IMG/VR virus record: IMGVR_UViG_3300045988_095842
From: a virus
Length of the DNA: 64,000 nucleotides
Reading direction: 5' to 3' (one strand)
Below the pieces are notes generated by a model. The model saw only the letters and a list, made by a program, of their open reading frames with translations. It was not told where the DNA came from and searched no databases. Shown one piece after another: positions 34,580 through 57,087 of the stretch. Position 1 is the stretch's first letter. Each line of letters starts with the position of its first letter. The position numbers and the translations under genes are program-made.

Positions 34580-35856
34580 TACTGATTACCTCCTTCTCTT
34601 GCAATCATTCTTTCTCTCGCTGCCTGTGCAGCAGTAAGTCCAATGGGGCGAGAATCTGCTGAATCGTGATTCAGCTTTCCAGCCATCTGCATGCGCTGGT
34701 AGTTCACGTCCTTCTTTCCAGGAACCGAGTTTTCAACTGCATACTGGAATGCATAGTTGATATATCCCTTGGACTTTCCATCAAGACGAACGTTCGGATT
34801 AACCTTTTTGATAACTCTCTTCTTGATCTCAAGGTTTGAAAGATTATCAACATCGTCCAGATTCAGACGATCCGCAATTCTGAGGATAGATACTCTCTCT
34901 CGGATTCTCTTATCTACAGAGTCCGCATTCATTGCCTCCTTGTCATCGGTGTCGTCATCTCCATCCTTGTTTTCCTTGGAAAGATCATTCTTTGCCTGGA
35001 TCTCATCAATGGAATCCAGAAGTGTCTGAATATCCTTATCCTGCTCGTCAAGCTTCTTGGTTGCCTCTTCCAGAGTCTTCGGATCTTCATCCGCATCTTT
35101 CCTGTCTCTGCGATCTCTGACCATCTTGATCTTGTCTTCCGGAGTCTCAGGATTATCTCCATCCTTGTTTTCCTTCTGATCATCAAGGCCAGTCTGATCA
35201 TCTCCGTCCTGCTCCTGCAGCCCCTTGATACCCTTTGCATACTCATCAGGGCTGATCGGCTCACCATCTTTTCGGGTGTGTCTCATTGCATGTCCTCCTT
35301 TTGCTAATGTGTTTGCGTCTCTATCTTTACCGTCGATGTTCAGACGGGCACTGTCTCCCGCCCTCGCTTCGGCGACTAAAGCCAAGTGATTGATGCGGAT
35401 ATTTCTCTGTATCGCATCGTAGTGTTCTCCCTGGTATTCTCCGGGCGTATTATCAATGTCGAGGTTGTATCCAAGTGACAGTTCTTTCAGGCCGCTTTCC
35501 TTCATGCTGTCGACATCATGGATAACAATCTTTGCCCTCACTGACTCACCATCCTGATATCCAGGTTCCAGGATGGTTCCGATTTCCTCGTCCGTTACAT
35601 TTTCCGTATTCACATATCCGGCATCGTGCGTCACAATCACAGGTTTTCCTGCATAGGAAGCCAGGGAATCCGGATTAAATACCTCATCCGGCGGTCTGAA
35701 CTCTCTTCTGACGGATCCATCTGGATTGTGATACTCAAATATGCCAATCCTGGTCACGATCGGATGATCAATCAGATATCCCTCTTTCGTGAAATAGGTC
35801 AGATCATTGGCATCCAACCGGATCACGTCCGTTCGGCGTAAATTCTTGATTTTCAT
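34579..35856 (-). CDS. Prohead protease/scaffold protein (DUF2213-like); start at ATG 35856
   Basis: GIFEYHNPDGSVRREFRPPDEVF..GKPVIVTHD..ELSLGYN..INHLALV pattern; acidic C-terminal half; RBS GGAGG. Confidence 0.7.
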   Translation of the reverse strand: MKIKNLRRTDVIRLDANDLTYFTKEGYLIDHPIVTRIGIFEYHNPDGSVRREFRPPDEVFNPDSLASYAGKPVIVTHDAGYVNTENVTDEEIGTILEPGYQDGESVRAKIVIHDVDSMKESGLKELSLGYNLDIDNTPGEYQGEHYDAIQRNIRINHLALVAEARAGDSARLNIDGKDRDANTLAKGGHAMRHTRKDGEPISPDEYAKGIKGLQEQDGDDQTGLDDQKENKDGDNPETPEDKIKMVRDRRDRKDADEDPKTLEEATKKLDEQDKDIQTLLDSIDEIQAKNDLSKENKDGDDDTDDKEAMNADSVDKRIRERVSILRIADRLNLDDVDNLSNLEIKKRVIKKVNPNVRLDGKSKGYINYAFQYAVENSVPGKKDVNYQRMQMAGKLNHDSADSRPIGLTAAQAARERMIAREGGNQ

Positions 35857-35880
35857 CTTTCCTCCATCAAAAATTGCAAC

Positions 35881-35918
35881 AAAAAAAGAGCCTGAACACA
35901 TTTCTGTGTCTAAGCTCT
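35881..35918 (-). terminator. Rho-independent terminator upstream of scaffold gene
   Basis: AGAGCTTAGACACA-GAAA-TGTGTTCAGGCTCT (2 mismatches) followed by T7 on minus strand. Confidence 0.6.
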
Positions 35919-36053
35919 TTTTCGAATGCCCTATGTACTCGTGGTACATGGGCGATAGCAGAAAACGCCACTGACCACAAAGATCAGTGACGTTCCAGAA
36001 CATCAACCTGCAACCTGGCAGGCGATTACCATATTAATTATCTCGGAATCTCG

Positions 36054-36368
36054 TTATTCGTCATCTTCGTCATCTTCATCTTCCATAGCTTCTCTTGCCG
36101 GCCAATTCGGATGCTCCTTCTCCAGCTTCTCCAGTTCTTCATCTGATGCTCGGAATTTCGCCCAGAAAGGATTCTCATCGTCAAAAATCCATTTCTGTTC
36201 AGGAGATAATTTTTCCGGATAATCCGGCCAGTAATTAAAAATGGTCTTTTTGTCAAAGCTGAACAACATCGGGCCTAATTCCCGGTTAATATTTCCATCT
36301 TCGTCAATTTCAAATTCGTCTACCCACCAAACTTTATCTCCGTCGTGCTCTTTATAAAAATCTAACAT
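36054..36368 (-). CDS. Acidic small protein, immunity-like position
   Basis: 104 aa ending EDEDDEDDE, immediately downstream of the polyvalent-type protein. Confidence 0.55.
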   Translation of the reverse strand: MLDFYKEHDGDKVWWVDEFEIDEDGNINRELGPMLFSFDKKTIFNYWPDYPEKLSPEQKWIFDDENPFWAKFRASDEELEKLEKEHPNWPAREAMEDEDDEDDE

Positions 36369-36428
36369 CTTCGTTCCCTCATCTCCCCTTGTCGCAGTAC
36401 CAAAATGACAGATCTTTTTAGAGAATAA

Positions 36429-37970
36429 CTAAGCAATATGACCTTCTCCACTCTTCCTTTCTTGCCCTTCGGCAGTATTCAAGTATCCAAGCAATTTCCG
36501 AAACTCATCGCTTTTCCCTAAAGACTCAATATCTACCATTCTTACAGTTTCTTTGTGGTCCATCACTTTATTTATTCTTTTGCTTTCACATTTGAAGCGC
36601 TCTCCTAATGTTTTCTTGATTGTGCCAAACTCTTTCATGGAATGCCATCCATTTTTATAAACTTTATGTTTATAAGTACCAGGTGACTGTAGCTCCAAAT
36701 ACATAGGCACTCCATTTTCTTTCTTAACGATCGCCGCATGTCTTCCTGCTGCTAATACATATTGCTTGCCTTCCTGCATTTTACCGAGCAATCGAATTGT
36801 TGCATCTTTTTCATTCCAATCCGACTCTTCTTGATACCCTTTTCCAAGTTTAAGGATAGCTTTGTTGTTATCCACCATTGCAAAAATATATCTGGATGTT
36901 CCACCTCTGAAATCTCGAACTTCAAATCCTGCTTTATTTCCAACATAGGCAAATGCTGTAGATGCGCAACTTCCTCCAGTTTTATCTCCTCCAGATATAA
37001 AATCTATGATTCCTTTCTCAGATATTGCGGACTCTCGCTTTTTTACCGGCCTGTTTTCAACCCCGTTCTCTTCCAGGTAGTGTCTAGCTATATTTTTCTG
37101 TTCCCAACCTTTACTCTCAGCATAACTGTTTGCAATCCCAAACGCCGCAGAATGATCGTTTCCGTGTGCCAGTTGTCCATCTTCATTTTTATATGCCCAA
37201 TATCCATTTTCAAGTTTGACATAAGCATGTCCTTTATCGTCTGTATAGATTGAACCAACGGGTAGACCGCCTATATTCTGGCTTGCACTTGCATGAACAT
37301 CATCAACATCTTTGCTTGAAGAAAACGCAGAATTCAGCTTTTCATTCTGATTGAGACCACTGTATTTACTTTCTGTAAAATCACTCTCGTGTCCGTTCTC
37401 GATTCGCGTCTGAACATCCTTGTTTGTGAACATGGACCCATTTTCAATACTCACCCATGTATCATCGTCCAATTTGATGAGATTCATCGGCTTGGCGCCA
37501 CCACTCCATGCTACTGTATCGCCTTTTTCTGCCTTTTCGACATCCTCCGGAGTAATTTTCCCGCTTTTCAGCGATTTTGTAAATGCAGATACCTTCGCTT
37601 CCTGCTTCTTTTCAGGCTCTTCCTTCTTTGCCGGTTCACTTCCGCCTACAACCGTCTTGTTCTTGTCTCTCTGTTTGTTCTCTTTATATGCACCAACAAG
37701 GCCTGTGTATCCACCAGTTGGAGTTGTAAGACGATAGGCAGCACCTCCGCCCGCTCCAGAACCTCCTTTGATCCCAGGTCTCCCAGAATACCCCCAGTTG
37801 CCGGATCCAGGGCCTCCGTCCAGACGTTCCATGTACCACTTCTGTGCAGCCACAAGATCAGATGAATCCCCTTTGAATTCATTTTCTGCATATACTGCAT
37901 TCAGATCCAACGGCCATCCGTTCCGGTCATACCATTGTTTCTGCGCATCGACTAAATTCATTTCCATCAT
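36429..37970 (-). CDS. Polyvalent/MuF-cargo-type protein with GSGNWG-GRPG linker and C-terminal Cys/His domain
   Basis: GGPGSGNWGYSGRPGIKGGSG linker; C-terminal GGSCASTAFAY ... GRHAAIV; ATGA overlap with MuF gene. Confidence 0.6.
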   Translation of the reverse strand: MMEMNLVDAQKQWYDRNGWPLDLNAVYAENEFKGDSSDLVAAQKWYMERLDGGPGSGNWGYSGRPGIKGGSGAGGGAAYRLTTPTGGYTGLVGAYKENKQRDKNKTVVGGSEPAKKEEPEKKQEAKVSAFTKSLKSGKITPEDVEKAEKGDTVAWSGGAKPMNLIKLDDDTWVSIENGSMFTNKDVQTRIENGHESDFTESKYSGLNQNEKLNSAFSSSKDVDDVHASASQNIGGLPVGSIYTDDKGHAYVKLENGYWAYKNEDGQLAHGNDHSAAFGIANSYAESKGWEQKNIARHYLEENGVENRPVKKRESAISEKGIIDFISGGDKTGGSCASTAFAYVGNKAGFEVRDFRGGTSRYIFAMVDNNKAILKLGKGYQEESDWNEKDATIRLLGKMQEGKQYVLAAGRHAAIVKKENGVPMYLELQSPGTYKHKVYKNGWHSMKEFGTIKKTLGERFKCESKRINKVMDHKETVRMVDIESLGKSDEFRKLLGYLNTAEGQERKSGEGHIA

Positions 37971-38911
37971 TTGCTCCTATCATCGTCCTCAAGCGGAAGA
38001 TTAAGCGTGTCTTTATCAAAAACAGGGATTCCCACACATCTGCAATTAAAGTCTTCCCCAGGATTGCATCGTCTTCCGGTATTTACCCAATACCCTCCGT
38101 GCTTACTCTGCCTCCACTCCATAATCTCCGGAGGATTGTTGTATTCAAAAATCTTTCCGTCTAAGATCGAGTGCCCAGGTCGAACTCTCTCATCATCAGA
38201 TGTGCTCCACTTATATCTTGAAACGCCGGCATCCTCATGTTCTTTTCTTGTTATGTTCGCGCTCAGCTTTGCCATCTGATCCCTTGCTATGAATTTGGCG
38301 TGCCGCTTGCTCATACTGTAGTTCTGCTGAATTAAAGAACCGATATCCGATGCTGAAAGTCCTTTGCTGTATCCGTATTCAATGGTTTCCTTCATCTTTC
38401 CCAGCATGTCGTTCGGCACAGTTTTTATCAGATCGACATTATCGGAAACCCATTGTCTAAGTTCTTCCTCAAAGAAATCTCCGTTGTAATAGTCCTTTGA
38501 GAGATCCACGTTCAGGGTTTTCCTGACCATCCTTCTCCACTCTGAGATTTCTGTTTTCTTGGTGATCGCACCAATTTTAAAAAGCTGAGTCAACAGGCGT
38601 TGTGTGGCGCCCATCGTGCTCAGCTTCTCATTGATTCTGTCAAAAAAATCCGTAATAAAGGCATGCAGATCAAAAATGCCATCCATCCGGATCTCGTCAT
38701 TTAACTGTCTCCGGTATTCCTCTTTCAGTCCAGGCATTTCTTTTTCAATCACAAGCTTCACGGCCTTCATGTACTGATTGACTGCTCTGATATATTCTCT
38801 TTCAGCCGATTCCGGAAACCTGTGAGTGCTTTTTCCTACGATGCTTGAATTTGTGCCAAATTTGGCCTCCAGTTGACTTTTAACGCTTTCAGAGTAGAAA
38901 TACTTCTGCAT
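37967..38911 (-). CDS. Minor head protein, Mu F / SPP1 gp7-like
   Basis: SDDERVRPGHSILDGKIFEYNNPP and NCRC motifs; start set to ATG 38911 (RBS GAGGGGG). Confidence 0.75.
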   Translation of the reverse strand: MQKYFYSESVKSQLEAKFGTNSSIVGKSTHRFPESAEREYIRAVNQYMKAVKLVIEKEMPGLKEEYRRQLNDEIRMDGIFDLHAFITDFFDRINEKLSTMGATQRLLTQLFKIGAITKKTEISEWRRMVRKTLNVDLSKDYYNGDFFEEELRQWVSDNVDLIKTVPNDMLGKMKETIEYGYSKGLSASDIGSLIQQNYSMSKRHAKFIARDQMAKLSANITRKEHEDAGVSRYKWSTSDDERVRPGHSILDGKIFEYNNPPEIMEWRQSKHGGYWVNTGRRCNPGEDFNCRCVGIPVFDKDTLNLPLEDDDRSK

Positions 38912-39002
38912 CAGCATACCCCCTCTAAATGAGCCAATTTGGAACAAAATAAAGGAGCCTTCATATCAAGGCTCCTGGACTCTATCTTTCAATAGCTGTT
39001 TT

Positions 39003-39440
39003 TTACTTGTTTTTGCAGCGGAGAAGTCTTGCTTCTACTCTTTTATACTTCTCCACTCGTGCCAGATCCTTATCTGTCGGATTCTGGATTCTGGAAAGAT
39101 CCATGTTGTTATGAAGATCAGCCAGCTTCACATCGATTGCCAAAGGATTTGTGCAAACACGATCAATGTAGGAATCGTAGCTCTCACCTTTCCTGTGAGT
39201 CAGGCAATCAAGTGCATCCGCAATAGTGTTCCCGAACTCATTTCTGATGTCGTCATTGGTTACATTCGTATCCTCAACCGTGTCGTGTAACAACGCAAGG
39301 ATTTTTTCCTTTTCGTCCGTCACTTGCTTTGCGACCGCAATGGGATGCAGAATATAAGGACTTCCACCCTTGTCGTACTGTCCATCATGTGCTCTAACTG
39401 CCAACTGAAGTGCTTCATACTCTTTGTCGCCCATGGACAC
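39003..39440 (-). CDS. HD-domain small alarmone hydrolase (SAH)-like protein
   Basis: AHDGQYDKGGSPYILHPIAVA ... LLHDTVEDT, RelA/SpoT-hydrolase-type HD motifs. Confidence 0.7.
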   Translation of the reverse strand: MSMGDKEYEALQLAVRAHDGQYDKGGSPYILHPIAVAKQVTDEKEKILALLHDTVEDTNVTNDDIRNEFGNTIADALDCLTHRKGESYDSYIDRVCTNPLAIDVKLADLHNNMDLSRIQNPTDKDLARVEKYKRVEARLLRCKNK

Positions 39441-39452
39441 CTCCCTAGAAGA

Positions 39453-39689
39453 TTAAGAATTTGACGCCCGCTTCTCATCCAGCTCTTTCATGATTTTCTT
39501 GGCTTCACTCTCAGAAATATCCTGTGATGTGCACCACCCATTCATAACATCCTCTGCAAACCGGCTTTTTTGCCATTTCCCATTTCTACAATAAACTTCG
39601 CACACATCTACAAAGTCAAATTCCGGATCAATAGATGCTCTGTACAGATCAAACCCACAATCATCACATGTCTTGTAAATGTATTTCAT
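39453..39689 (-). CDS. small hypothetical protein (CDDC .. C..YC)
   Basis: Start ATG 39689 with RBS GGGAGG; between synthetase-like and hydrolase-like genes. Confidence 0.5.
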   Translation of the reverse strand: MKYIYKTCDDCGFDLYRASIDPEFDFVDVCEVYCRNGKWQKSRFAEDVMNGWCTSQDISESEAKKIMKELDEKRASNS

Positions 39690-39748
39690 GCCATCACCTC
39701 CCTGCAGCACTATAATATCGCGCCATTTCTAACATGTCAGCTTATTTG

Positions 39749-40372
39749 TTACTTCTTCCATGTCTTTACAGAAGAAATATCTTTTGGCATATCAAGTGTT
39801 GCGGAGATATCCTTCATTTCCAATTTGAGTGCATTCTTCAGCCGTCCGCTACTTTCTCTTGACACATCATACATAGGATGGATCGTCTCCTTTACCTTCA
39901 TCGACTGTTTGGAATGAATCTGAAGCTCAATCTGCTGTCCGGAAGGCGATACAGCACCAATGTGAACTCCTTTGTAATCTGAGCTCGGATTATTGTACTT
40001 ATTATCAACCTCATTGACGGTGTATCCTTTCTTTTTAAGCTGATCCACCGTGCTTTTCGTTGCAGCCGCGATATTGTTATGATCTGTGAGCTGTGTGTAT
40101 CTGACCAGATCACCCATGCTCTTTACTATCTGTTCATCAGATTCATTCGCATGTTCAGGATCAGCTTTCTTTCTCGCAATCTTGCTTGCTATAGATTTTC
40201 CTGTCTTCACAGAAAAGTCAAGTCCATACATCTCTGAGCCGCTCTGTCCTGCAATTTCAATCATGTCCTTTGAAATCTGCGGTTCCTTTGCTCTGATTGC
40301 ATCATATGCCGCCTGTGCTTCTTTGGATGCTCCAGGAATTGTATGATCCTTGGCTGCTGCGGTTGCTGTCAC
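39749..40372 (-). CDS. RelA/SpoT-type nucleotide pyrophosphokinase domain protein (small alarmone synthetase / toxSAS-like)
   Basis: KTGKSIASKIARK, GDLVRYTQL, DYKGVHIGAV, IELQIHSKQS..HPMY correspond to the synthetase-domain motif order; GTG start overlapping NUDIX stop. Confidence 0.6.
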   Translation of the reverse strand: MTATAAAKDHTIPGASKEAQAAYDAIRAKEPQISKDMIEIAGQSGSEMYGLDFSVKTGKSIASKIARKKADPEHANESDEQIVKSMGDLVRYTQLTDHNNIAAATKSTVDQLKKKGYTVNEVDNKYNNPSSDYKGVHIGAVSPSGQQIELQIHSKQSMKVKETIHPMYDVSRESSGRLKNALKLEMKDISATLDMPKDISSVKTWKK

Positions 40373-40869
40373 CGGCTGTTTTCCTTCTGCAACTGCTTTA
40401 GAAGCCTTGTCCCAGGTCTCCCAGAATGCCCCCAGTTACCGGAACCGGCTCCTCCATCCGCTCTTCCTTTGATGCAATCTTCCAGAAGGGAAATCGAATC
40501 ATCAAATGCCGGATACAGAAGACCACCTCTCTGCTCCAGATCAGAAATATCGTTGAATCCGAAATACTCATCCACCATTTCAGTTCCGTCTGCCTTTGGC
40601 TCTCCCTCAAAATCTGTGCAGAGAAAGACCATGGTAGGAAGATATTCTCCCTCAGGACTCTTCAAACATCCGATCATCTTCAGATCTTTTGGAGTAACAC
40701 CAAATTCCTCTCTGGTCTCTCTGATCGCTGCATCCATTGGATCCTCATCTTTTTCAACATGTCCACCAGGACCGCAGATCTCTCCGGTATCTGAACGAAG
40801 TCCGCACAGAAACTTCCCGTCTTTAACCACTAAAACTCCAACTCCATACGGAATATCGTTTTTGTTCAT
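40369..40869 (-). CDS. NUDIX hydrolase with C-terminal GSGNWGHSGRPG linker motif
   Basis: Exact Nudix box GHVEKDEDPMDAAIRETREEFGV; start set to ATG 40869 (MNKNDIPYGVGVLV). Confidence 0.75.
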   Translation of the reverse strand: MNKNDIPYGVGVLVVKDGKFLCGLRSDTGEICGPGGHVEKDEDPMDAAIRETREEFGVTPKDLKMIGCLKSPEGEYLPTMVFLCTDFEGEPKADGTEMVDEYFGFNDISDLEQRGGLLYPAFDDSISLLEDCIKGRADGGAGSGNWGHSGRPGTRLLKQLQKENSR

Positions 40870-40942
40870 GCTCTGCCCTTTCTTTTTTGCATCAAAAAAG
40901 GACTCAGGCTTTCGCCCAAGTCCTCTCAAAATCTAAATATCT

Positions 40943-41179
40943 TTATACTCCCATCAATTCGGAGTACTTCATATCTGCAATGCTTTCTGCAATTTTGCAT
41001 TTCTCAGAAATATCATCGATAGCATTTCCGGATTCGTCCACCAGCTCATCAGCAGAAATCATGAAGCTTTCCTCACGAATATGGAACCAATCCACCTTAC
41101 TGACATCCTTCAGGTCTTCTTTTGTCTTGTGAAAATTGTCCCATATAAACTTTAACTGCTTTTCCGACAGGTCTTTCAT
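40943..41179 (-). CDS. hypothetical protein
   Basis: 78-aa ORF following portal gene. Confidence 0.55.
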   Translation of the reverse strand: MKDLSEKQLKFIWDNFHKTKEDLKDVSKVDWFHIREESFMISADELVDESGNAIDDISEKCKIAESIADMKYSELMGV

Positions 41180-43026
41180 TACTCATCCTCCGCCCATAAG
41201 TCAATCGTAGTCACGATATTTCCTGCATTGCTTAGAACAATGCGGTTTTTGCCTTTCTGGAAGCATGTAACATCTTTATGCTTACTATTTCCTGGATACA
41301 TGGAATCCGGATTTTCGAGTGAATCTTTCAGATCTTCCGGTGTTATATTCCTTGATTTCATCCGGTAGCCGGCATGTGCACTTACTTCCTTCACCGTAAC
41401 GCCATTCTGTGCTACCGTTCCCTTTACTGCTTTTGTGAACTCCCTTGCCGCTTTGTAATCTTTTTGTGATGACTGTCCGTTATGAGGGCCAGCAGCGTTC
41501 TGATTTCCATATGGCGCCCCGTCCACATTCATCATACCATCTTGCTGTAAATTGTCAGCGCTTTCCTGCGCATTTTCTTCACCCTGCAGATCACTGATCT
41601 TGTTCAGCTCAGCCTGTTGCTTGCGAAGATCAAAGGCTTCATCCGGAATTTCGAGATTATCATTTTCAACAATCCCCTGGATCTGATACTCGTTGGAATC
41701 AGCAAGACCCTTACGGACTTCGGACGGATCCAACGCCTGCATATCCACATAAATCTGTGCCGTAGAAGCCTTTGTCTGCTCTGTTCCAGCTTTAATGCTG
41801 TCCACATTCGCCTGTTCTTCCTCGGAAAGCTGTTTCAGCGGTTTGAATTTCACCTCATAATCAGGAATATCTACCTTCTTTTTGGCCTCTATCTCTTTTA
41901 AAACAGCCCTGATGACCTTTTCGGCTGCACCATGGTACGAATTCGCCTGAATTCTGTTCAATAACTGGAAATAATTATCTCTGTCATTGTCGCCGGTTGA
42001 ATCTTCTCCAGCCGGATCCTTTCCAAAGAGAATTGTCTGAGGAATGTCCGTGACAGCGGAAAGCATATTGCAAGTACGGTCGATCAGGTCGGATGCTCCG
42101 GACATCGATGCATTGATATACTGGTAATCCTCTCCATCATTATCAATCGCCATGGAATTGATGATATTCCGTGCCATATCGATTACCTGTAATCTCTGGA
42201 TTACCTTGTCTTCTCCTTCCTCAGTTGCGAGAAGCTGAGAAAGGTTTTTCATCTTATATACGCCGAGAACAGAACGCTCCAATAGTTTTGTGCCGTCATG
42301 ATGTGACGTAACGGTCTCTCTAAGGGCCTCTCTGATCTTCATATAGACAGGAATACCCCAATGCTTGTAAATCACGCTGTTGGCGCTCTCAGGCACTCTT
42401 CCGTTGCGGAATACAAGACACCTTGAGTAGTGAACGCGGAAAGATCCATACTGCGAATACACGTCATAAAACTCAGGATCTCCAAATTTCCGTTCTCTGT
42501 CTTCGCGGTCGATATCATGAAAGTAGCTAAAGTCCAATGTATCTGCCTGAACAATCGGTCTTTCGAACGTAATCAACTCTTCGATGCTTTTTACATTTTT
42601 CCAATTCAAAGGCTCATCAAGGCCTCTTCCATCATCCACAAGCATGACCACCAGAGCCCCGCCGTAAAGTCTGCTCCACTTTTCCGCAGTAGCCAGTGTA
42701 TCCGTAAAATCCAGCTTACTAAGCTTCTTCAGAACTTCTTTTTCAAGCTCATCACCCAGGTCAGAAAGATCCAGGCCTTTTGCGATAGCATCCTCTGCCG
42801 GCCGATCAATGATTTTTGCGAACAGACCATTTCCGATATACAGTGACGATAGCTTCGCATCCGAAGAAATTGCATCTGCACTATATTCCCATGCGGTAGA
42901 ATTATCCTTCATGGTTCCGACTTTGGTCAGCATGTTCATGTATCCGTCACTGCGATACTCGCTGACAGCCTGATTATATCGGCTGATTTCCTCTATCCGC
43001 TGAAGCGGATTGATTTGTACGCCCAT
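41179..43026 (-). CDS. Portal protein (DUF1073-type) with C-terminal BECR/DUF4258-like domain
   Basis: 615 aa after TerL; C-terminus SAHAGYRMKSRNITPEDLKDSLENPD...NRIVLSNAGNIVTTIDLW resembles DUF4258. Confidence 0.75.
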   Translation of the reverse strand: MGVQINPLQRIEEISRYNQAVSEYRSDGYMNMLTKVGTMKDNSTAWEYSADAISSDAKLSSLYIGNGLFAKIIDRPAEDAIAKGLDLSDLGDELEKEVLKKLSKLDFTDTLATAEKWSRLYGGALVVMLVDDGRGLDEPLNWKNVKSIEELITFERPIVQADTLDFSYFHDIDREDRERKFGDPEFYDVYSQYGSFRVHYSRCLVFRNGRVPESANSVIYKHWGIPVYMKIREALRETVTSHHDGTKLLERSVLGVYKMKNLSQLLATEEGEDKVIQRLQVIDMARNIINSMAIDNDGEDYQYINASMSGASDLIDRTCNMLSAVTDIPQTILFGKDPAGEDSTGDNDRDNYFQLLNRIQANSYHGAAEKVIRAVLKEIEAKKKVDIPDYEVKFKPLKQLSEEEQANVDSIKAGTEQTKASTAQIYVDMQALDPSEVRKGLADSNEYQIQGIVENDNLEIPDEAFDLRKQQAELNKISDLQGEENAQESADNLQQDGMMNVDGAPYGNQNAAGPHNGQSSQKDYKAAREFTKAVKGTVAQNGVTVKEVSAHAGYRMKSRNITPEDLKDSLENPDSMYPGNSKHKDVTCFQKGKNRIVLSNAGNIVTTIDLWAEDE

Positions 43027-43376
43027 TACAGATAACTCCTTCCATATCTTTTCATAAATGCTTCTCTGGCCGGATCTGAGTCTCCGTGTTCGCCTGATCT
43101 ATCTTTGTAATACTGCTTTTCCCAGGCGAGTTGCCCGATCATCTTTGACATTGCCTCAGCCATGCTGTTTCCGTGAATGATCAGTGTGCCGTTCTTTTTA
43201 TTTCCATTCTTTGGAATATAACCCATGTTGTGACAGGCATTTGTCACAGGGATCACCAGACCATCCTCATCTGCTTTCTCGCGATTGATTCCAAAAATTA
43301 AATGATGTACTGCCTCAGAAGGACGGCCCGTAAAAGCACACACGTCCATATAATCTGTCACTATGCTCTTTTTCAT
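43026..43376 (-). CDS. hypothetical protein, weak HNH-like pattern
   Basis: AVHHLIFG ... NACHN between TerL and portal; weak. Confidence 0.4.
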   Translation of the reverse strand: MKKSIVTDYMDVCAFTGRPSEAVHHLIFGINREKADEDGLVIPVTNACHNMGYIPKNGNKKNGTLIIHGNSMAEAMSKMIGQLAWEKQYYKDRSGEHGDSDPAREAFMKRYGRSYL

Positions 43377-43390
43377 TCCGTCCCTCTTTC

Positions 43391-44799
43391 CTATAGCATC
43401 GAATCTATGTTGAACATTCCATAGTTTGCCAGCTCATCAAATGCGGATGACGTAGCATCCACCATGTCCTTAAACTTTGAATCCGGAAAACTCTCAAGCT
43501 GTGAGAAGTAATCGTCATTCCATTCTCCCTGCACAACATCAAAGAACCCATGCTGCCATTGCGCAGCTACAGGCGTTGCCCGGAACGTCTTATCTCCTGT
43601 CTCTGTCCGTGCAGAAACATCAAATCCGGCAAGTTCAGACACAAAAAAAGCCGCCTGACTCTTTCCGGCTTGTCCGGGGTCCTGCGGAATTCTGACTTTC
43701 ACATATCCATATGATGCTCTATCCGAAATTGCTGTGTTTTTAATCAGCGATAATACTTCTCCTGCAGCAAGCCTCATGTTTATTACATCAAGGATTGCGT
43801 ATCTGTTATTTTTCAACACCGCCATGAGAACGCCTGCTGTATATGCAGGATCTCCGTTCTCATCCTCTGAAGTAGCCGCCAGATCCCATCCACGACACAT
43901 CGCAATAATGTCGTCCTTGCGGATCTGTTCCTTTTGAATCAGCTTGACCTGTCCCCTCTGGAACATTAACCCTGCATGGTTCCGGATCTTCCAGTTTCCA
44001 TTCAGAAGGCGTTCTCTCTCTACCATCGGAAGGTTGAGAAGGTTCGTCATATACTGAGGATTCGTCCTCAGCAGTTCTTTATTGTCCTGGACAGAAGAAG
44101 GTATGAATGTAACTGATTTTGCGACAAACGGAAGAAGATCCTCTGTCACTCCATCTTCCCTTGCATACAGGATTGCATCGTCTTTATTATCAAACCAGTG
44201 AATTACGCCCTTTAACCGGACCATCCACCGGATTACTCCAGCTCTTTCTTTAATCGGATATCCGGAATCCTGATCTATCCACCATGAAATAAATTTCGCC
44301 ACCCAGGAATCAGAATCCGGATTGCATGTTGCCCTGATATACGGCTGAACACCACATATAGAACGGTTTCTGGACAGCATATAGAAGAACTGATACTCGC
44401 TGAAGTGACATAACTCATCAAACTCGATCAGACATATCTGAGATCCCTGCCATTGCTCACAATCTTCATTCCTGGACAGATGAGCGAATGTAATCGATGC
44501 TCCAGACTGAAATGACCAATGCATCTTCGGTGTCTTTCCGGAATGCGCTCCCTTAACAAAGGGATATATTTCTCTTGCAGAGTCCCAAAGACCTCCAGGA
44601 GCCGTAATCTGTGTATAGGCGTGACGCAGGATCAGCACATTGAATTTTGGATTATCAATATGCCTTAACGGTTCAAGAAGCTCTGCGAACGTCTTCCCGC
44701 CGGTCAGCCGCCCGCGGCGCCGCCATATACCACAATGTCTGCACTGGAAGACAAAAACGCTTCCTGCGGACCTGGCTGCGGAGCAAATACCGTGGACAT
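43391..44799 (-). pseudogene. terL: Terminase large subunit, reading frame broken inside Walker A by an 8-nt insert carrying TGA
   Basis: N-part ..VVYGGAAGG-TGA (stop 44704-44706); GKTFAELLEPLRH.. continues in another frame from 44698; Walker B ICLIEFDE; removing 8 nt restores YGGAAGGGKT. Confidence 0.75.
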
Positions 44800-44827
44800 T
44801 TGATCACCCCCTTCCGTCACCACATAC

Positions 44828-45178
44828 TCATTCTGCGTCCGGTCTTCCGTTATCAGGGATATAGATCTGTACTCCCTGCTCTGCTGTAACGCCAAGCCTT
44901 ACATCGTCTTTCTGTCCCAGGTACTGCTTTCCGAGGAATATTGCCATGGATGCTGACTTGTCTGCCAGCTTCCACTGCTTTCTTCTCAGTGAGATTTTGC
45001 CAGCCGCCCGGTATTCCGCAAAAACATCCGCAAAACTCCTGTGATATGTTCTCTTGCACCATCGCTCAATTGTGTCTGTCGAACATTTGAACCAGCATGC
45101 TATTTCTTCCAATGTGCACTGTAAACTACATAGGTTTTCGAACACTCCTTTGTCTATTTTTGTTCTCGGTCTTGCCAT
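44828..45178 (-). CDS. terS: Terminase small subunit
   Basis: HTH-like N-terminus, ISLRRKQWKLADKSASMAIFLGKQYLGQKD pattern; directly upstream of terL. Confidence 0.7.
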   Translation of the reverse strand: MARPRTKIDKGVFENLCSLQCTLEEIACWFKCSTDTIERWCKRTYHRSFADVFAEYRAAGKISLRRKQWKLADKSASMAIFLGKQYLGQKDDVRLGVTAEQGVQIYIPDNGRPDAE

Positions 45179-45180
45179 AT

Positions 45181-45624
45181 CTACCACTCATATCCGCATT
45201 TTGGACACTTGTGTGTCTTGCGGAGCTCCTTTTCTATGTTCTCCTTCTCCGACTTGAACCCAAAATCAGCCATATTAAATATGTCTTTCAGTTCCATTAA
45301 CTCCTGATGGAGCTTGTCCTTATCCCAAACCGCAATTTCAGCAACCTTGTTATCTGCCAGTCGGAATGCTGTTACCTGTTCCTCTGTAAGGTCATCTGCA
45401 ATAATTGTCGGTACATTTTCAATCCCAAGCTGCTGTGCTGCAAGGAACCTCGTATGACCACAGATGATTACATTTTCCTTATCCAGGATGATGGGATTCA
45501 GGAATCCAAATTCCTTAATGGAATTGCGGACTGACTTCACCGCTTTTTCATTCCGTCTTGGGTTATTCTCGTAGTAATAAATACTATCCAGCGGTTTATA
45601 TACGATCTTTAATTCTTTAGCCAT
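45181..45624 (-). CDS. ParB-like nuclease domain protein with C-terminal zinc ribbon
   Basis: ENNPRRNEKAV..IICGHTRFLAA..RLADNK; C-terminal CPKCG. Confidence 0.7.
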   Translation of the reverse strand: MAKELKIVYKPLDSIYYYENNPRRNEKAVKSVRNSIKEFGFLNPIILDKENVIICGHTRFLAAQQLGIENVPTIIADDLTEEQVTAFRLADNKVAEIAVWDKDKLHQELMELKDIFNMADFGFKSEKENIEKELRKTHKCPKCGYEW

Positions 45625-46634
45625 TGCTCATACACCTCCACCGCTATATTTGCCTCCATATTCGGAGGAACGCTCATTCCGCATACATACTGAGGATCGT
45701 TCCCGCAGAAGTCATAATCCTGTGGGAAGGTCTGTACATTTCTAAAGTCATTTCCGCAGAACAACTCCTTGTCGCAAAACCTCCAGAAATCCCCACTTGA
45801 TGTAATTGCCTGGACGACTTCATTATCTCCGGTAATTCTCGTACTGAAATACTGGTTTTTCTTTCCGGTCAATCTCTTATAAACCTCTTCTCCAGAAGTT
45901 TCTCCGGGAAGTGCTCTATCCACCAATTGTTTTGTCACACTATTTGGAGTTCCCTTTATTCCGTGCTCTGCTCGCACCTCTTTGAATGGAATCCTGTCAT
46001 AATGGAAGTCCAGTTTCAGTTTCGGATATCCCATCCGGTTTGCTATGAAGAACACTCTGTGTCTTGCGGTCGGACAATCCATCCTTGCAGCATTCAGCTT
46101 AAATATCTGCACATCATATCCAAGTTCCTTGAACCGCTTCAGGATCTGATTGACATAGCCCTTTGCATTACCGGTCAGAAGACCAGGAACATTTTCTGCA
46201 ATTACAACCTTCGGCTTCAGTTTTTCAACTGTATCCAGAAAAAACAAAAAGAGGTCATCAAGCACTTGCGGTGCCTGACCCTCTCTGAATTTCTTTTTAA
46301 CGCCCCATCCTTCTTCTCGCTTTCCAACCATGGAAAATGTCGAACATGGAGGCGATCCGTCCAGAATATCCAGATGATAGAGTTCTTCCGGAATATCAGT
46401 CAGTTCATTGAACTTCCGCAGATCCATGTTGAAGTTGTACTTCGGATGGTGGTTTTGGACATACATAGCATTGATTTTAGGATCAATTTCAACATTTCCG
46501 ATCACATGGAAGCCGGCTCTTTTGTATCCCATGGAGGATCCACCGCCACAGCTAAAAGTGGTCAGAACTTTGACGTCCTTATCCGGATTCAAATCTTTCA
46601 GATTCCATTTCCAGTCAAATCTGTGCCCGCTCAT
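45609..46634 (-). CDS. dcm: DNA (cytosine-5)-methyltransferase
   Basis: FSCGGGSSMGY (motif I), GSPPCSTFS (motif IV), AENVPGL (VI), QTFPQDY (VIII), GMSVPP (X). Confidence 0.85.
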   Translation of the reverse strand: MSGHRFDWKWNLKDLNPDKDVKVLTTFSCGGGSSMGYKRAGFHVIGNVEIDPKINAMYVQNHHPKYNFNMDLRKFNELTDIPEELYHLDILDGSPPCSTFSMVGKREEGWGVKKKFREGQAPQVLDDLFLFFLDTVEKLKPKVVIAENVPGLLTGNAKGYVNQILKRFKELGYDVQIFKLNAARMDCPTARHRVFFIANRMGYPKLKLDFHYDRIPFKEVRAEHGIKGTPNSVTKQLVDRALPGETSGEEVYKRLTGKKNQYFSTRITGDNEVVQAITSSGDFWRFCDKELFCGNDFRNVQTFPQDYDFCGNDPQYVCGMSVPPNMEANIAVEVYEQWLKN

Positions 46635-54836: not shown

Positions 54837-54971
54837 AGTGCTCCTTTCACTGATTTTGTGTTAAAATCTGATAACATGAATACTTAATTGTGTACATCAA
54901 CTAGTACATAAATATATTACAACGCATTTGTATTTTTGTAAACCGATATGTTTTATTTTATGGAGGTTTTT
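54837..54971. promoter_or_regulatory. Divergent promoter/operator region of the lysis-lysogeny switch
   Basis: AT-rich 135-bp gap between Cro-like (-) and cI-like (+) genes with repeated GTACAT and inverted TTACAA..TTGTAA elements. Confidence 0.6.
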
Positions 54972-55346
54972 ATGACTGTAGGGCAACGTGTTCTTTATCT
55001 TATCGAAAAGCAAGGGCGCAAACGCATTGATTTAGCCGATCATCTCGGCACTTCCAGTAGCACAATCAATGGATGGAAAGAAGAAAACAGATCCCCATCT
55101 GCGACATATATTTTACCGATATGCGAATTTTTGGGTGTCACTCCTGAATTTCTACTGAGCGGAAAAGACGCAGTAAAATCAGATTTTCCATTATCTGCAC
55201 CAGAAAAGAAATTGATCAGTAGTTACAGACAGCTTCCAACCAACTTGCAAGAAAGACTATTTGGGTATGCCAACGGCATGCTGGAAGCTTATCTTACTTC
55301 TCAAGAAGAAAAAATGAACGCATCATCAATATCCAAGATATCTTAA
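54972..55346 (+). CDS. cI-like XRE-family repressor
   Basis: RIDLADHLGTSSSTINGWKEENRSP HTH; ATG 54972 with RBS GGAGG. Confidence 0.7.
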   Translation: MTVGQRVLYLIEKQGRKRIDLADHLGTSSSTINGWKEENRSPSATYILPICEFLGVTPEFLLSGKDAVKSDFPLSAPEKKLISSYRQLPTNLQERLFGYANGMLEAYLTSQEEKMNASSISKIS

Positions 55347-55360
55347 AGAGGAGGTAGGAA

Positions 55361-55729
55361 ATGGAATACAACCAGAAAGAATTTATGGAGCGCCTGCATG
55401 CCCTCATGTATGCTCATGGAATGAATAACAGAACACTCGCCAGAACGCTCGGAATGGCAGAAAGCATTGTATCCCATTGGGATGCAGGAACAGAACCCAA
55501 AATTACAACACTTGCAAAAATCTGCAAGCTGTTCCATGTCAACGCCGACTTCATGCTGTTCGGAAAAAGAAAAGAGCCGGCATCCACACTTATGATCGAA
55601 GACGTGAAGGAAAAAAATCTCGTTGAAGAATTCCGCCGGCTTACTCCAGATCAGCAGCTCATGGTTTACGGCTACACAAGTGCCTTGAATTACGGAAATC
55701 AAACTAAAAAGGCCAGAAAGGAATCATAA
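55361..55729 (+). CDS. Second XRE-family HTH protein of the lysogeny module
   Basis: NRTLARTLGMAESIVSHWDAGTEP HTH. Confidence 0.65.
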   Translation: MEYNQKEFMERLHALMYAHGMNNRTLARTLGMAESIVSHWDAGTEPKITTLAKICKLFHVNADFMLFGKRKEPASTLMIEDVKEKNLVEEFRRLTPDQQLMVYGYTSALNYGNQTKKARKES

Positions 55730-57087
55730 TGGCTTCCGTTGTTAAAAGGGGAGAGAACTACCGAATTGAAGTCTACTGCGGAATACAGGACGGAAAGAAA
55801 ATTCACAAGTACGCCACTTTCCGTCCGGACCCGGCAAAGTCAGAAAAGAAGAACCAGAAAGCTCTGGAAGAATTTATTTTCAAATTTGAGCAAAGGTGTA
55901 GAACCGGAGAAGTAGCATCCGACTCCACAACCTTTAAGGAGTATGCTCAGGAATGGATGAACAAATACCGTTCTGAACTTGAAAGCACAACGGTCTCCAC
56001 ATATATTGGTTGCCTGAACAAAGCCATTATCCCCTATATCGGATATATGAAGCTATCCTCCATTAAGCCGGCCACGATCCAAGACTTTGTAAACAGTCTC
56101 AGAAAGAAGACATACTCCTATAACAAGGGGCAGCGTAAGGGCCACTACTCGGAAGAATATATTCGGAATTGTAAAGCAGTCATCTCTTCCATCTTATCAA
56201 CTGCACAGGAAAACGGCCTTATAACATCTAATCCATGCTCCGTCAGAATCCGAAGAAATAAGAGTCAAAAAGAAATCGAAAGACAGGCGCACAAAATCCA
56301 GTGCTTTACTCCGGAAGAAGCTGCGCTCTTTTTGGATGTCATATCAAACCCGATCCCAATCACCGTACAAGAGCATACGCAAATACGAAAAGGTAAAAAG
56401 GTAATTATCAAAGCCCACGCACAAGGAACAATGAATGTGTCTCCTCAGCTCCAGACATTCTTTTGGCTTGCAATCTACTCAGGCTGCCGGCGCGGAGAAC
56501 TGATTGGCCTTACGTGGAAATATGTGAACTTTGAAAAAAACTGTATCACAATAGAAAGATCCCTTGCCTATACATCAAAATCTGGCGCCTATGTTAAAGC
56601 TCCAAAAACCAGCGCCGGATATAGGGACATTGATATGGTGCCATCAGTAATGGCAATGCTAAAGACTCAGAAAGAATCAGCAGAAGCATGGATGCAAAAC
56701 ATGGGAACAGCATGGAAGGGAAAACGGAATATTGAAGACTGCCCTGTGTTCATGCAGGAAGATGGAACGCCAATGTCCTTATGTACTCCAAGAAGAACCA
56801 TGCAGCGTGCAATTAACTGCTACAACGAATCCAGGAAGGAAGGTCAGCCAGAGCTCCCTTTAATCCGTCTACACGATTTGAGACACACTACAGCATCCAT
56901 CTTGATCTCCAGCAAGCTTGATCCTCCATCTGTGGCAAGCAGACTCGGCCACGCAGACCCGTCCGTGACCATGCGAATCTACAGCCACGCTTTTAAAAAC
57001 AGAGATCATCTAGCAAGCATGGCAATCCAGGAAAGTCTATCCAATGCCAGGAATGAAAATAATCAACCATCAGATCAGGGAAAATAA
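55729..57087 (+). CDS. int: Tyrosine recombinase (phage integrase)
   Basis: C-terminal HDLRHTTASILIS..VASRLGHADPSVTMRIYSH catalytic pattern; adjacent to att site. Confidence 0.9.
   Translation: MASVVKRGENYRIEVYCGIQDGKKIHKYATFRPDPAKSEKKNQKALEEFIFKFEQRCRTGEVASDSTTFKEYAQEWMNKYRSELESTTVSTYIGCLNKAIIPYIGYMKLSSIKPATIQDFVNSLRKKTYSYNKGQRKGHYSEEYIRNCKAVISSILSTAQENGLITSNPCSVRIRRNKSQKEIERQAHKIQCFTPEEAALFLDVISNPIPITVQEHTQIRKGKKVIIKAHAQGTMNVSPQLQTFFWLAIYSGCRRGELIGLTWKYVNFEKNCITIERSLAYTSKSGAYVKAPKTSAGYRDIDMVPSVMAMLKTQKESAEAWMQNMGTAWKGKRNIEDCPVFMQEDGTPMSLCTPRRTMQRAINCYNESRKEGQPELPLIRLHDLRHTTASILISSKLDPPSVASRLGHADPSVTMRIYSHAFKNRDHLASMAIQESLSNARNENNQPSDQGK

Follow-up and report, generated by a model that had tools for sequence, protein, structure and literature searches.

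A probable NUDIX-headed toxin gene of the Apk2/IapK/Aph1 type, apparently broken by a 178-nt deletion, in the head module of a temperate phage

Four consecutive open reading frames (ORFs) on the minus strand of virus record IMGVR_UViG_3300045988_095842, analysed here as a window of 64,000 nucleotides (nt), had been described from the sequence as an alarmone-type module of four genes encoding a NUDIX protein, a RelA/SpoT-like synthetase, a small protein and an HD hydrolase. All four were present at positions 39003 to 40869 in the ORF list, and these identities held in profile, homology and structure searches. The locus most probably represents a polymorphic toxin-immunity cassette of the Apk2/IapK(Tis1)/Aph1 type in a temperate phage, with its fusion gene frameshifted by a 178-nt deletion. 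Judged from comparison with relatives, the four genes are three ancestral genes of which the first is broken. The reported overlap between the GTG start of the synthetase and the stop codon of the NUDIX gene would be an accident of this deletion and not a feature of operon design. Gene callers will split the broken gene into two entries, and these are easily misread as an operon.

Two IMG/VR contigs (L016 and L017) were 96-98% identical to positions 35763-45762 of the window and carried a single ORF of 456 amino acids (aa) made up of the NUDIX domain, a GSGNWGHSGRPG/GGAGSGNWGHSGRPG linker, a Gly-rich stretch, a spacer and the synthetase. BLAST aligned L017 4661-5148 with window 40898-40410 and L017 5316-9973 with window 40420-35763, the two segments overlapping by 11 nt in the window. 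Apart from the 178-nt gap, no indel was present in the 4.6 kb that extend from the junction across the genes downstream, and the deletion looks recent on this account. The 178 nt were bounded by direct repeats of 9-11 nt, GAGACCTGG(GA), which encode G-R-P-G where they lie in the linker and (K)-E-T-W-D where they lie in the spacer. As 178 is not divisible by three, the reading frame of the NUDIX domain enters a 13-aa nonsense tail before reaching a TGA, which overlaps the GTG at 40372. In all intact relatives this GTG encodes an internal Val. Upstream of it, 21 further codons of the synthetase frame are open, and fifteen of these, ETWDKASKAVAEGKQP, were homologous to the spacer of the closest homologue and were present in the fusion ORFs of L001 and L017. 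The synthetase homologues are 280-358 aa long compared to 207 aa in the window, and consist of an N-terminal segment, the motif DGGPGSGNWGHxGRPGxxGGS (referred to below as the junction motif) and a spacer of approximately 60-70 aa ahead of the catalytic domain. A programmed -1 frameshift joining the NUDIX and synthetase frames was considered and rejected, as no slippery heptamer was found and the near-identical relatives show a simple 178-nt deletion.

The 5' fragment of the broken gene matched the Pfam NUDIX family (PF00293, E 3.5e-14, 53.4 bits against a cutoff of 21.1) and was 90.9% identical at the nucleotide level to the corresponding 5' portion of the fusion ORF (456 aa) in L017. Its Nudix box, GHVEKDEDPMDAAIRETREEFGV, is intact with the glutamates in place (pattern G-x5-E-x7-REtrEEfGV, consensus GX5EX7REUXEEXGU). 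A motif scan located the GGAGSGNWGHSGRPG linker at 40411-40446, followed by the out-of-frame 13-aa tail TRLLKQLQKENSR and the stop codon. The domain is generically MutT/NUDT1-like and no specific NUDIX subfamily profile matched at its cutoff. The preliminary description had proposed this protein as a second alarmone degrader, a role that the distribution of the family does not favour. Homologues elsewhere were fused to a portal, a prohead protease (PF14550) or other domains, or stood alone with the linker, in each case without a synthetase, and in one more distant phage the NUDIX domain formed the end of a 1032-aa portal. On this comparative evidence the NUDIX family is a general head-associated module, in agreement with a survey of head-packaged Nudix modules (PMC9503650, section 3.5.2).

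Profile searches proposed in the preliminary description recovered the NUDIX and HD_4 families, while the RelA_SpoT profile scored only 20.4 bits on the synthetase and remained below its gathering cutoff of 27. Other searches with the synthetase were strong. The closest solved structure was PDB 8VX3, the exported alarmone synthetase SaEAS of Streptomyces albidoflavus, which makes both (p)ppApp and (p)ppGpp (PMC12691689) and was matched by phmmer with an E-value of 9.7e-12 and by the family profile with 2.7e-26. An AlphaFold model of the synthetase (pLDDT 93.7) also gave 8VX3 as the best Foldseek match (TM 0.76-0.81), followed by SAS1, Tas1 and RelP, with CapRel far lower (TM 0.5, E 5e-4). The Asp of the GDLVRYT motif in the window aligned with the position mutated in the crystal construct (D121A). 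SaEAS differs in being a Sec-exported bacterial enzyme with no phage context, NUDIX domain or adjacent immunity pair. By tblastn the synthetase aligned over 85-91% of its length (E 4e-15 to 6e-11) with MuF "head morphogenesis" proteins from phages of S. pneumoniae, Mannheimia and Pasteurella, being 30-33% identical to their C-terminal domains, and it matched positions 324-502 of the 504 in phrog_7625, also annotated as head morphogenesis (E 3e-22). In a joint alignment with the Apk2 domains of the S. pneumoniae and Mannheimia phages, all Syn-motif residues were invariant (K56/S60/K64, D88-R91-Y92-T93, Y133-K134-G135, E149-Q151-H153 and H165). The domain was 99-100% identical at the amino acid level to that of L016 and L017, and no match to the synthetase was found with PADLOC. 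Judged from these alignments and the structural model, the assignment as a RelA/SpoT-type synthetase domain is solid despite the sub-threshold Pfam score.

The HD protein matched Aph1 (PDB 7SMG, 149-aa chain) with an E-value of 2e-33 and 48% identity over 128 columns, its LLHDTVEDT motif being aligned with the LLHDTIEDT of Aph1, and further matched Pfam HD_4 (5.8e-10) and phrog_990 (4.7e-53). Between the synthetase and this gene lies the small ORF, with a probable start at ATG 39689. An ORF of 69-114 aa directly followed the synthetase in every related locus examined. An hhalign comparison with an alignment that mixes validated IapK of S. pneumoniae and Mannheimia with small ORFs of gut phages gave a probability of 80% (E 1.3e-5), the aligned region being restricted to 31 columns at the C-terminus. 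No match to the small ORF was found in Pfam, PHROGs, NCBIfam or the PDB, or by tblastn in phages; a profile of small ORFs did not find Tis1 in the PDB, and the AlphaFold model of the window protein (pLDDT 78.6) had no PDB fold match by Foldseek, Tis1 included. A search of 5.8 billion proteins returned only three close homologues, and an exhaustive search with a profile across 1.84 billion representatives yielded two more small relatives along with repeat-protein noise. A sigma-70-like promoter candidate falls within the 59-nt gap ahead of the small ORF, and both of its hexamers were kept in L001, L096 and L097 while the flanking genes were only approximately 66-86% identical. Given these conserved -35 and -10 hexamers and a terminator-like hairpin after the HD gene, the two immunity genes probably have a promoter and a terminator of their own and would be expressed separately.

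Cassettes of Apk2, a Tis1-like IapK and Aph1 have been described for MuF polymorphic toxins in temperate phages of B. caccae, S. pneumoniae, M. haemolytica and P. multocida (PMC10083569, PMC12226406). Briefly, the Apk2 toxin domains make (p)ppApp by pyrophosphorylating ATP or ADP and are toxic, IapK/Tis1 blocks the enzyme and Aph1 hydrolyses the product, with the Tis1-like genes always present and the Aph genes variably so (PMC10083569, PMC12226406). Aph1 hydrolyses (p)ppApp and not (p)ppGpp (PMC10083569), and production of (p)ppApp has been demonstrated for prophage Apk2 toxins of S. pneumoniae, Mannheimia and Pasteurella (PMC12226406). In the window, the three genes for synthetase, small protein and HD hydrolase correspond in order to this experimentally characterised cassette, the synthetase and the hydrolase also in homology, so that a module of this kind had already been characterised, contrary to what the preliminary description had supposed. 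The order of synthetase, ORF of about 70 aa and compact HD hydrolase is the same, as is the setting among the portal and MuF head genes of a temperate phage, and the identities given above are to phage homologues of the validated toxins and to Aph1 itself. Unlike in the Apk2 cassettes, MuF is a separate downstream gene, the intact relatives carry NUDIX, linker and spacer N-terminally, the fusion gene is broken in the window and the small ORF is only marginally similar to IapK.

The cassette has already been described as a kind, and what appears new on sequence comparison is the NUDIX-headed polyvalent Apk architecture; it is best filed as a new architectural form because the synthetase is not fused to MuF. 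The occurrence of this toxin, with its immunity pair, in a polyvalent protein that begins with NUDIX and is joined by a conserved modular linker also used for other cargo suggests that phage (p)ppApp toxins are not confined to MuF fusions. Searches for Apk-type toxins could accordingly be extended, published surveys having identified them by way of fusions to MuF or PAAR.

By 2017, RelA/SpoT domains had been recorded in proteins of the polyvalent and MuF kinds (PMC5512222, PMC5576092). The polyvalent proteins and head-packaged Nudix modules of Iyer et al. 2017 (PMC5512222) and Iyer et al. 2022 (PMC9503650) likewise have several effector domains per virion-module polypeptide, and RelA/SpoT and Nudix domains each already occur there as cargo in fusions with MuF, portal or prohead protease. 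Term searches of these two papers found no mention of a NUDIX-RelA/SpoT fusion or of the junction motif. At least two effector domains on one polypeptide encoded beside portal and MuF were found in L017, L096 and L097, and in the window this polypeptide is interrupted by the frameshift. Different from the polyvalent proteins, the phage group studied here tends to have separate linker-headed cargo ORFs and not one giant protein. Tas1/Apk1-Tis1, a (p)ppApp effector of the type VI secretion system (T6SS; PDB 6OX6), shares the enzyme superfamily, the ATP-depletion toxin logic and a protein immunity with the cassette. The similarity is only distant (profile E 0.13, Foldseek TM 0.54), and Tas1 differs in its PAAR/T6SS delivery and in having no hydrolase immunity.

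A search of genome contigs with the single protein returned no match, and a profile search then found two loci (L096 and L097) in metagenome-assembled genomes (MAGs), one labelled Lachnospiraceae and the other binned as Succinivibrio. These carried ORFs of 521 and 623 aa with the order NUDIX, repeated linker-module units, spacer and synthetase, followed in both by a small ORF, an HD gene, MuF and a linker-headed cargo protein. The NUDIX-synthetase fusion was therefore present in at least three lineages (456, 521 and 623 aa). Five further phage lineages had the synthetase, then an ORF of 69-114 aa and then usually HD_4, the more distant phages differing in what precedes the synthetase and in the position of MuF. 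Other relatives had lost the toxin independently. In L008 and L009 the NUDIX-linker was directly followed by the small ORF, HD and MuF, the synthetase being gone. In L006 and L007 an in-frame deletion of 756 nt left a 122-aa remnant without Syn1 and Syn2, and these contigs break off just past it, where the small ORF begins. The locus thus presents a natural series of intact fusion, 178-nt frameshift, in-frame remnant and complete loss. Both the small ORF and the HD gene were retained in the window and persisted in L008 and L009 even though the synthetase was lost. Retention of immunity while the toxin is lost would be expected under stronger selection for immunity to incoming related phages than for the toxin itself. 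A separate observation concerns L006 (1-9012) and L007, where the prophage remnant (portal fragment, 78-aa ORF and the 122-aa NUDIX::synthetase product) adjoins BREX genes (BrxA, BrxB and BrxC).

The junction motif occurred in one to three copies per protein (L002, L012, L014, L015, L097 and the window), where it joined or headed NUDIX, synthetase and ADP-ribosyltransferase modules or was located near the N-terminus of stand-alone cargo ORFs. The earlier remark that the linker is common to the NUDIX gene and to the protein encoded at 36429..37970 held, and in related phages the motif connects or precedes a large number of cargo domains. The two linker copies in the window (37773-37808 and 40411-40446) have an identical run of 18 nt of DNA in common, and the motif may be a recombination, cleavage or loading signal. 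The second protein, of 513 aa, has an ATG that overlaps the MuF stop codon and looks like MuF cargo that has been split from MuF. It begins with a short segment ahead of the linker, and its C-terminal domain has the Cys/His motifs GGSCASTAF...GRHAAIV and matches the C-terminus of the "head morphogenesis" family phrog_4728; no Pfam match was found for this domain. A different C-terminal domain is present at the orthologous position in L096, and a DUF7675 ORF (36054-36368) follows the 513-aa protein in the window.

In the intact form (L016, L017, L096 and L097), one late head-module gene would encode a polyvalent protein with an N-terminal NUDIX domain, at least one junction motif, a helical spacer and, at the C-terminus, an adenosine 3'-pyrophosphokinase of the RelA/SpoT family. 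This protein would be produced at the same time as portal and MuF, be packaged in the capsid and enter the next host, where the synthetase would move pyrophosphate from ATP onto ATP or ADP, yielding (p)ppApp and draining the adenylate pool. The producing lysogen would be protected by the small downstream protein, predicted to block the synthetase, and by the Aph1-type HD protein, predicted to hydrolyse (p)ppApp. The copy in the window would amount to a NUDIX-linker ORF with a nonsense tail, an intact synthetase domain without a start of its own and both immunity genes, the synthetase being translatable only through fortuitous re-initiation at the internal GTG. The toxin in the window may therefore be crippled or uncoupled from its delivery module with the immunity kept. 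The preference in the preliminary description for virion-associated effectors or a split polyvalent protein over a two-gene toxin-antitoxin (TA) system was well placed, as the near-identical relatives encode NUDIX, linker and synthetase as one polypeptide.

Several points weigh against a frameshifted Apk2-type cassette. A MuF fusion, the defining architecture of Apk2, is absent, and the sole grounds for proposing that the NUDIX-Apk protein is packaged are the position of its gene and the fusions of these modules to portal, MuF or protease elsewhere. The likeness of the small ORF to IapK is weak given the 31 columns, the mixed alignment and the lack of a Tis1 fold match. The sequence does not discriminate between (p)ppApp, (p)ppGpp or both, as in SaEAS, as the product of the synthetase. 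The deletion is known from contig sequence, and an AAGGA located 9 nt before the GTG makes residual expression of the synthetase possible. The last of these would also suit a functional four-gene operon in which GTGA coupling yields a free 207-aa synthetase, toxic, cytoplasmic and unpackaged, for a TA-like addiction system with two immunity proteins. The catalytic domain is complete and nearly identical to that of the intact relatives, the GTG overlaps the TGA and both immunity genes are intact. However, the overlap arises only by out-of-frame reading after the deletion and at an internal Val codon of every intact relative, the deletion looks recent, and other relatives have lost or destroyed the synthetase, which points to decay and not to re-design. 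Such an operon is considered unlikely.

A role in anti-phage defence or as a toxic small alarmone synthetase (toxSAS) of the CapRel, FaRel or PhRel kind, acting by tRNA pyrophosphorylation or alarmone synthesis on infection with a small alarmone hydrolase (SAH) as antitoxin, is very improbable. The RelA/SpoT fold and the presence of CapRel among the distant Foldseek matches are in line with it, and HD-type SAH antitoxins are known for FaRel (PMC7229694). Set against this, the closest relatives of the synthetase are Apk2 toxin domains and SaEAS and not toxSAS, the PADLOC search was negative, the nearest match of the hydrolase is Aph1, which is specific for (p)ppApp, and the gene is a late head-module gene fused to cargo-type modules and linkers in place of a defence-island context. 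It is also quite doubtful that the NUDIX domain is a functional partner of the synthetase, either as an alarmone-degrading safety device in cis or as an enzyme converting (p)ppApp or ATP to another product. Some Nudix enzymes do hydrolyse alarmones, and the fusion recurs across the lineages noted above. Most synthetase homologues (P0002-P0016) nevertheless have no NUDIX domain in the same protein, and most NUDIX homologues occur with no synthetase. In addition, the NUDIX domain matched no specific family and is separated from the synthetase by a junction motif that also parts unrelated cargo domains. A broader and somewhat speculative proposal is that the junction and the short segment preceding it form a MuF-independent signal for capsid loading or maturation cleavage of interchangeable packaged cargo, or that NUDIX-synthetase is a true two-enzyme effector. 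If the former were true, this group of Lachnospiraceae phages would package NUDIX, (p)ppApp synthetase and ADP-ribosyltransferases as separate or concatenated cargo, and if the latter, the NUDIX domain would reshape the nucleotide product or substrate pool and would not be an unrelated passenger.

Features of the cassette and of its surroundings in the window, with strand and basis of assignment
Feature	Position	Strand	Basis or remark
Apparent 5' fragment of broken fusion gene (NUDIX, linker and 13-aa tail)	40369..40869	-	Pfam NUDIX, motif scan
Deletion junction	40410..40420	-	11-nt microhomology (GGGAGACCTGG region); 178 nt of L016, L017 and L001 absent
Apparent 3' fragment of fusion gene: spacer end (ETWDKASKAVAEGKQP) and complete Apk-type RelA/SpoT synthetase domain	39749..40420	-	Homology, structure match
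Sigma-70-like promoter candidate CTGACA-17-TATTAT	39712..39740	-	Consensus scan, 10/12 matches
Small ORF, 78 aa, GGAGG ribosome-binding site; candidate IapK/Tis1-type protein immunity	39453..39689	-	
Aph1-type (p)ppApp hydrolase, compact HD domain of about 143-145 aa; predicted enzymatic immunity	39003..39434	-	
Terminator-like hairpin, 9-bp stem and TTATTTTGTT	38953..38976	-	Between HD gene and MuF
Short MuF (SPP1 gp7-like) head protein, 326 aa	37967..38947	-	PF04233 1e-18; phrog_324 1.7e-53
513-aa cargo protein with GGPGSGNWGYSGRPG linker near N-terminus (37773-37808)	36429..37970	-	phrog_7104; phrog_4728 C-terminus
Portal with C-terminal cargo-like extension	41179..43026	-	PF06381 3.4e-72; 78-aa ORF 40943-41179 next
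Terminase	43391-44638	-	Head module
Tyrosine integrase	55729-57087	+	

The ORF list and profile searches identified the minus strand from 33 to 45 kb of the window as a phage head module in the order terminase, 116-aa ORF, portal, 78-aa ORF, the four ORFs of the cassette, short MuF, 513-aa protein, DUF7675, a DUF2213 protein and the major capsid protein. The placement of the cassette between portal and MuF in a head-morphogenesis block, as first described, was upheld by PF06381 and PF04233, and the MuF protein of the window carries no fused toxin. The element is temperate, because a tyrosine integrase and CI-type repressors are present in the window; the synthetase-bearing module is thus within the head-morphogenesis block of a temperate phage, as for Apk2. 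The lysogeny module (54948-57087, plus strand) includes the tyrosine integrase and two CI/Cro-type helix-turn-helix genes, and sequence beyond approximately 57.5 kb may be host DNA or another element. No tRNA genes were found in the window and megablast of 36000-43100 against the GenBank phage collection gave no match. The likely host, judged from the related MAG loci, is a member of the Lachnospiraceae.

The portal of the window has a C-terminal extension of about 90 aa after a GAPYGNQNAAGPH motif (region 41179-41640), followed by the 78-aa ORF, and the extension has weak similarity to the toxin-like DUF4258 (E 0.001-0.005). This portal segment is replaced in the 96% identical L017 by a different tail in a 732-aa portal, with a different 81-aa ORF next to it. 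The difference looks like polymorphic swapping of cargo and immunity on the portal.

The reading frame of the large terminase (TerL) of the window is broken inside the Walker A coding region (44638-44720, minus strand), where YGGAAGG is followed by TGA and the frame resumes 8 nt on at GKTFAELL, the 8-nt insert being TGACCGGC. A 5-nt insert, TAGGA, was located after YGG in the 96% identical phage of L016 and L017 (approximately 1060-1100 in L016), and the more distant relative L013 had an 8-nt insert, TAGCGTCT, beginning with TAG after AVY (approximately 2470-2500). TerL was uninterrupted in 72 of 77 IMG/VR relatives. The three inserts are at different codons, and each begins with an in-frame stop right after the last in-frame codon and needs a net -1/+2 shift to restore ...GGGKT. 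The insert in the window is flanked by GGC codons reminiscent of paired take-off and landing sites. The interruption might be explained by programmed recoding, by error-prone repair recurring at the target of a homing endonuclease, or by a defective or decaying prophage.

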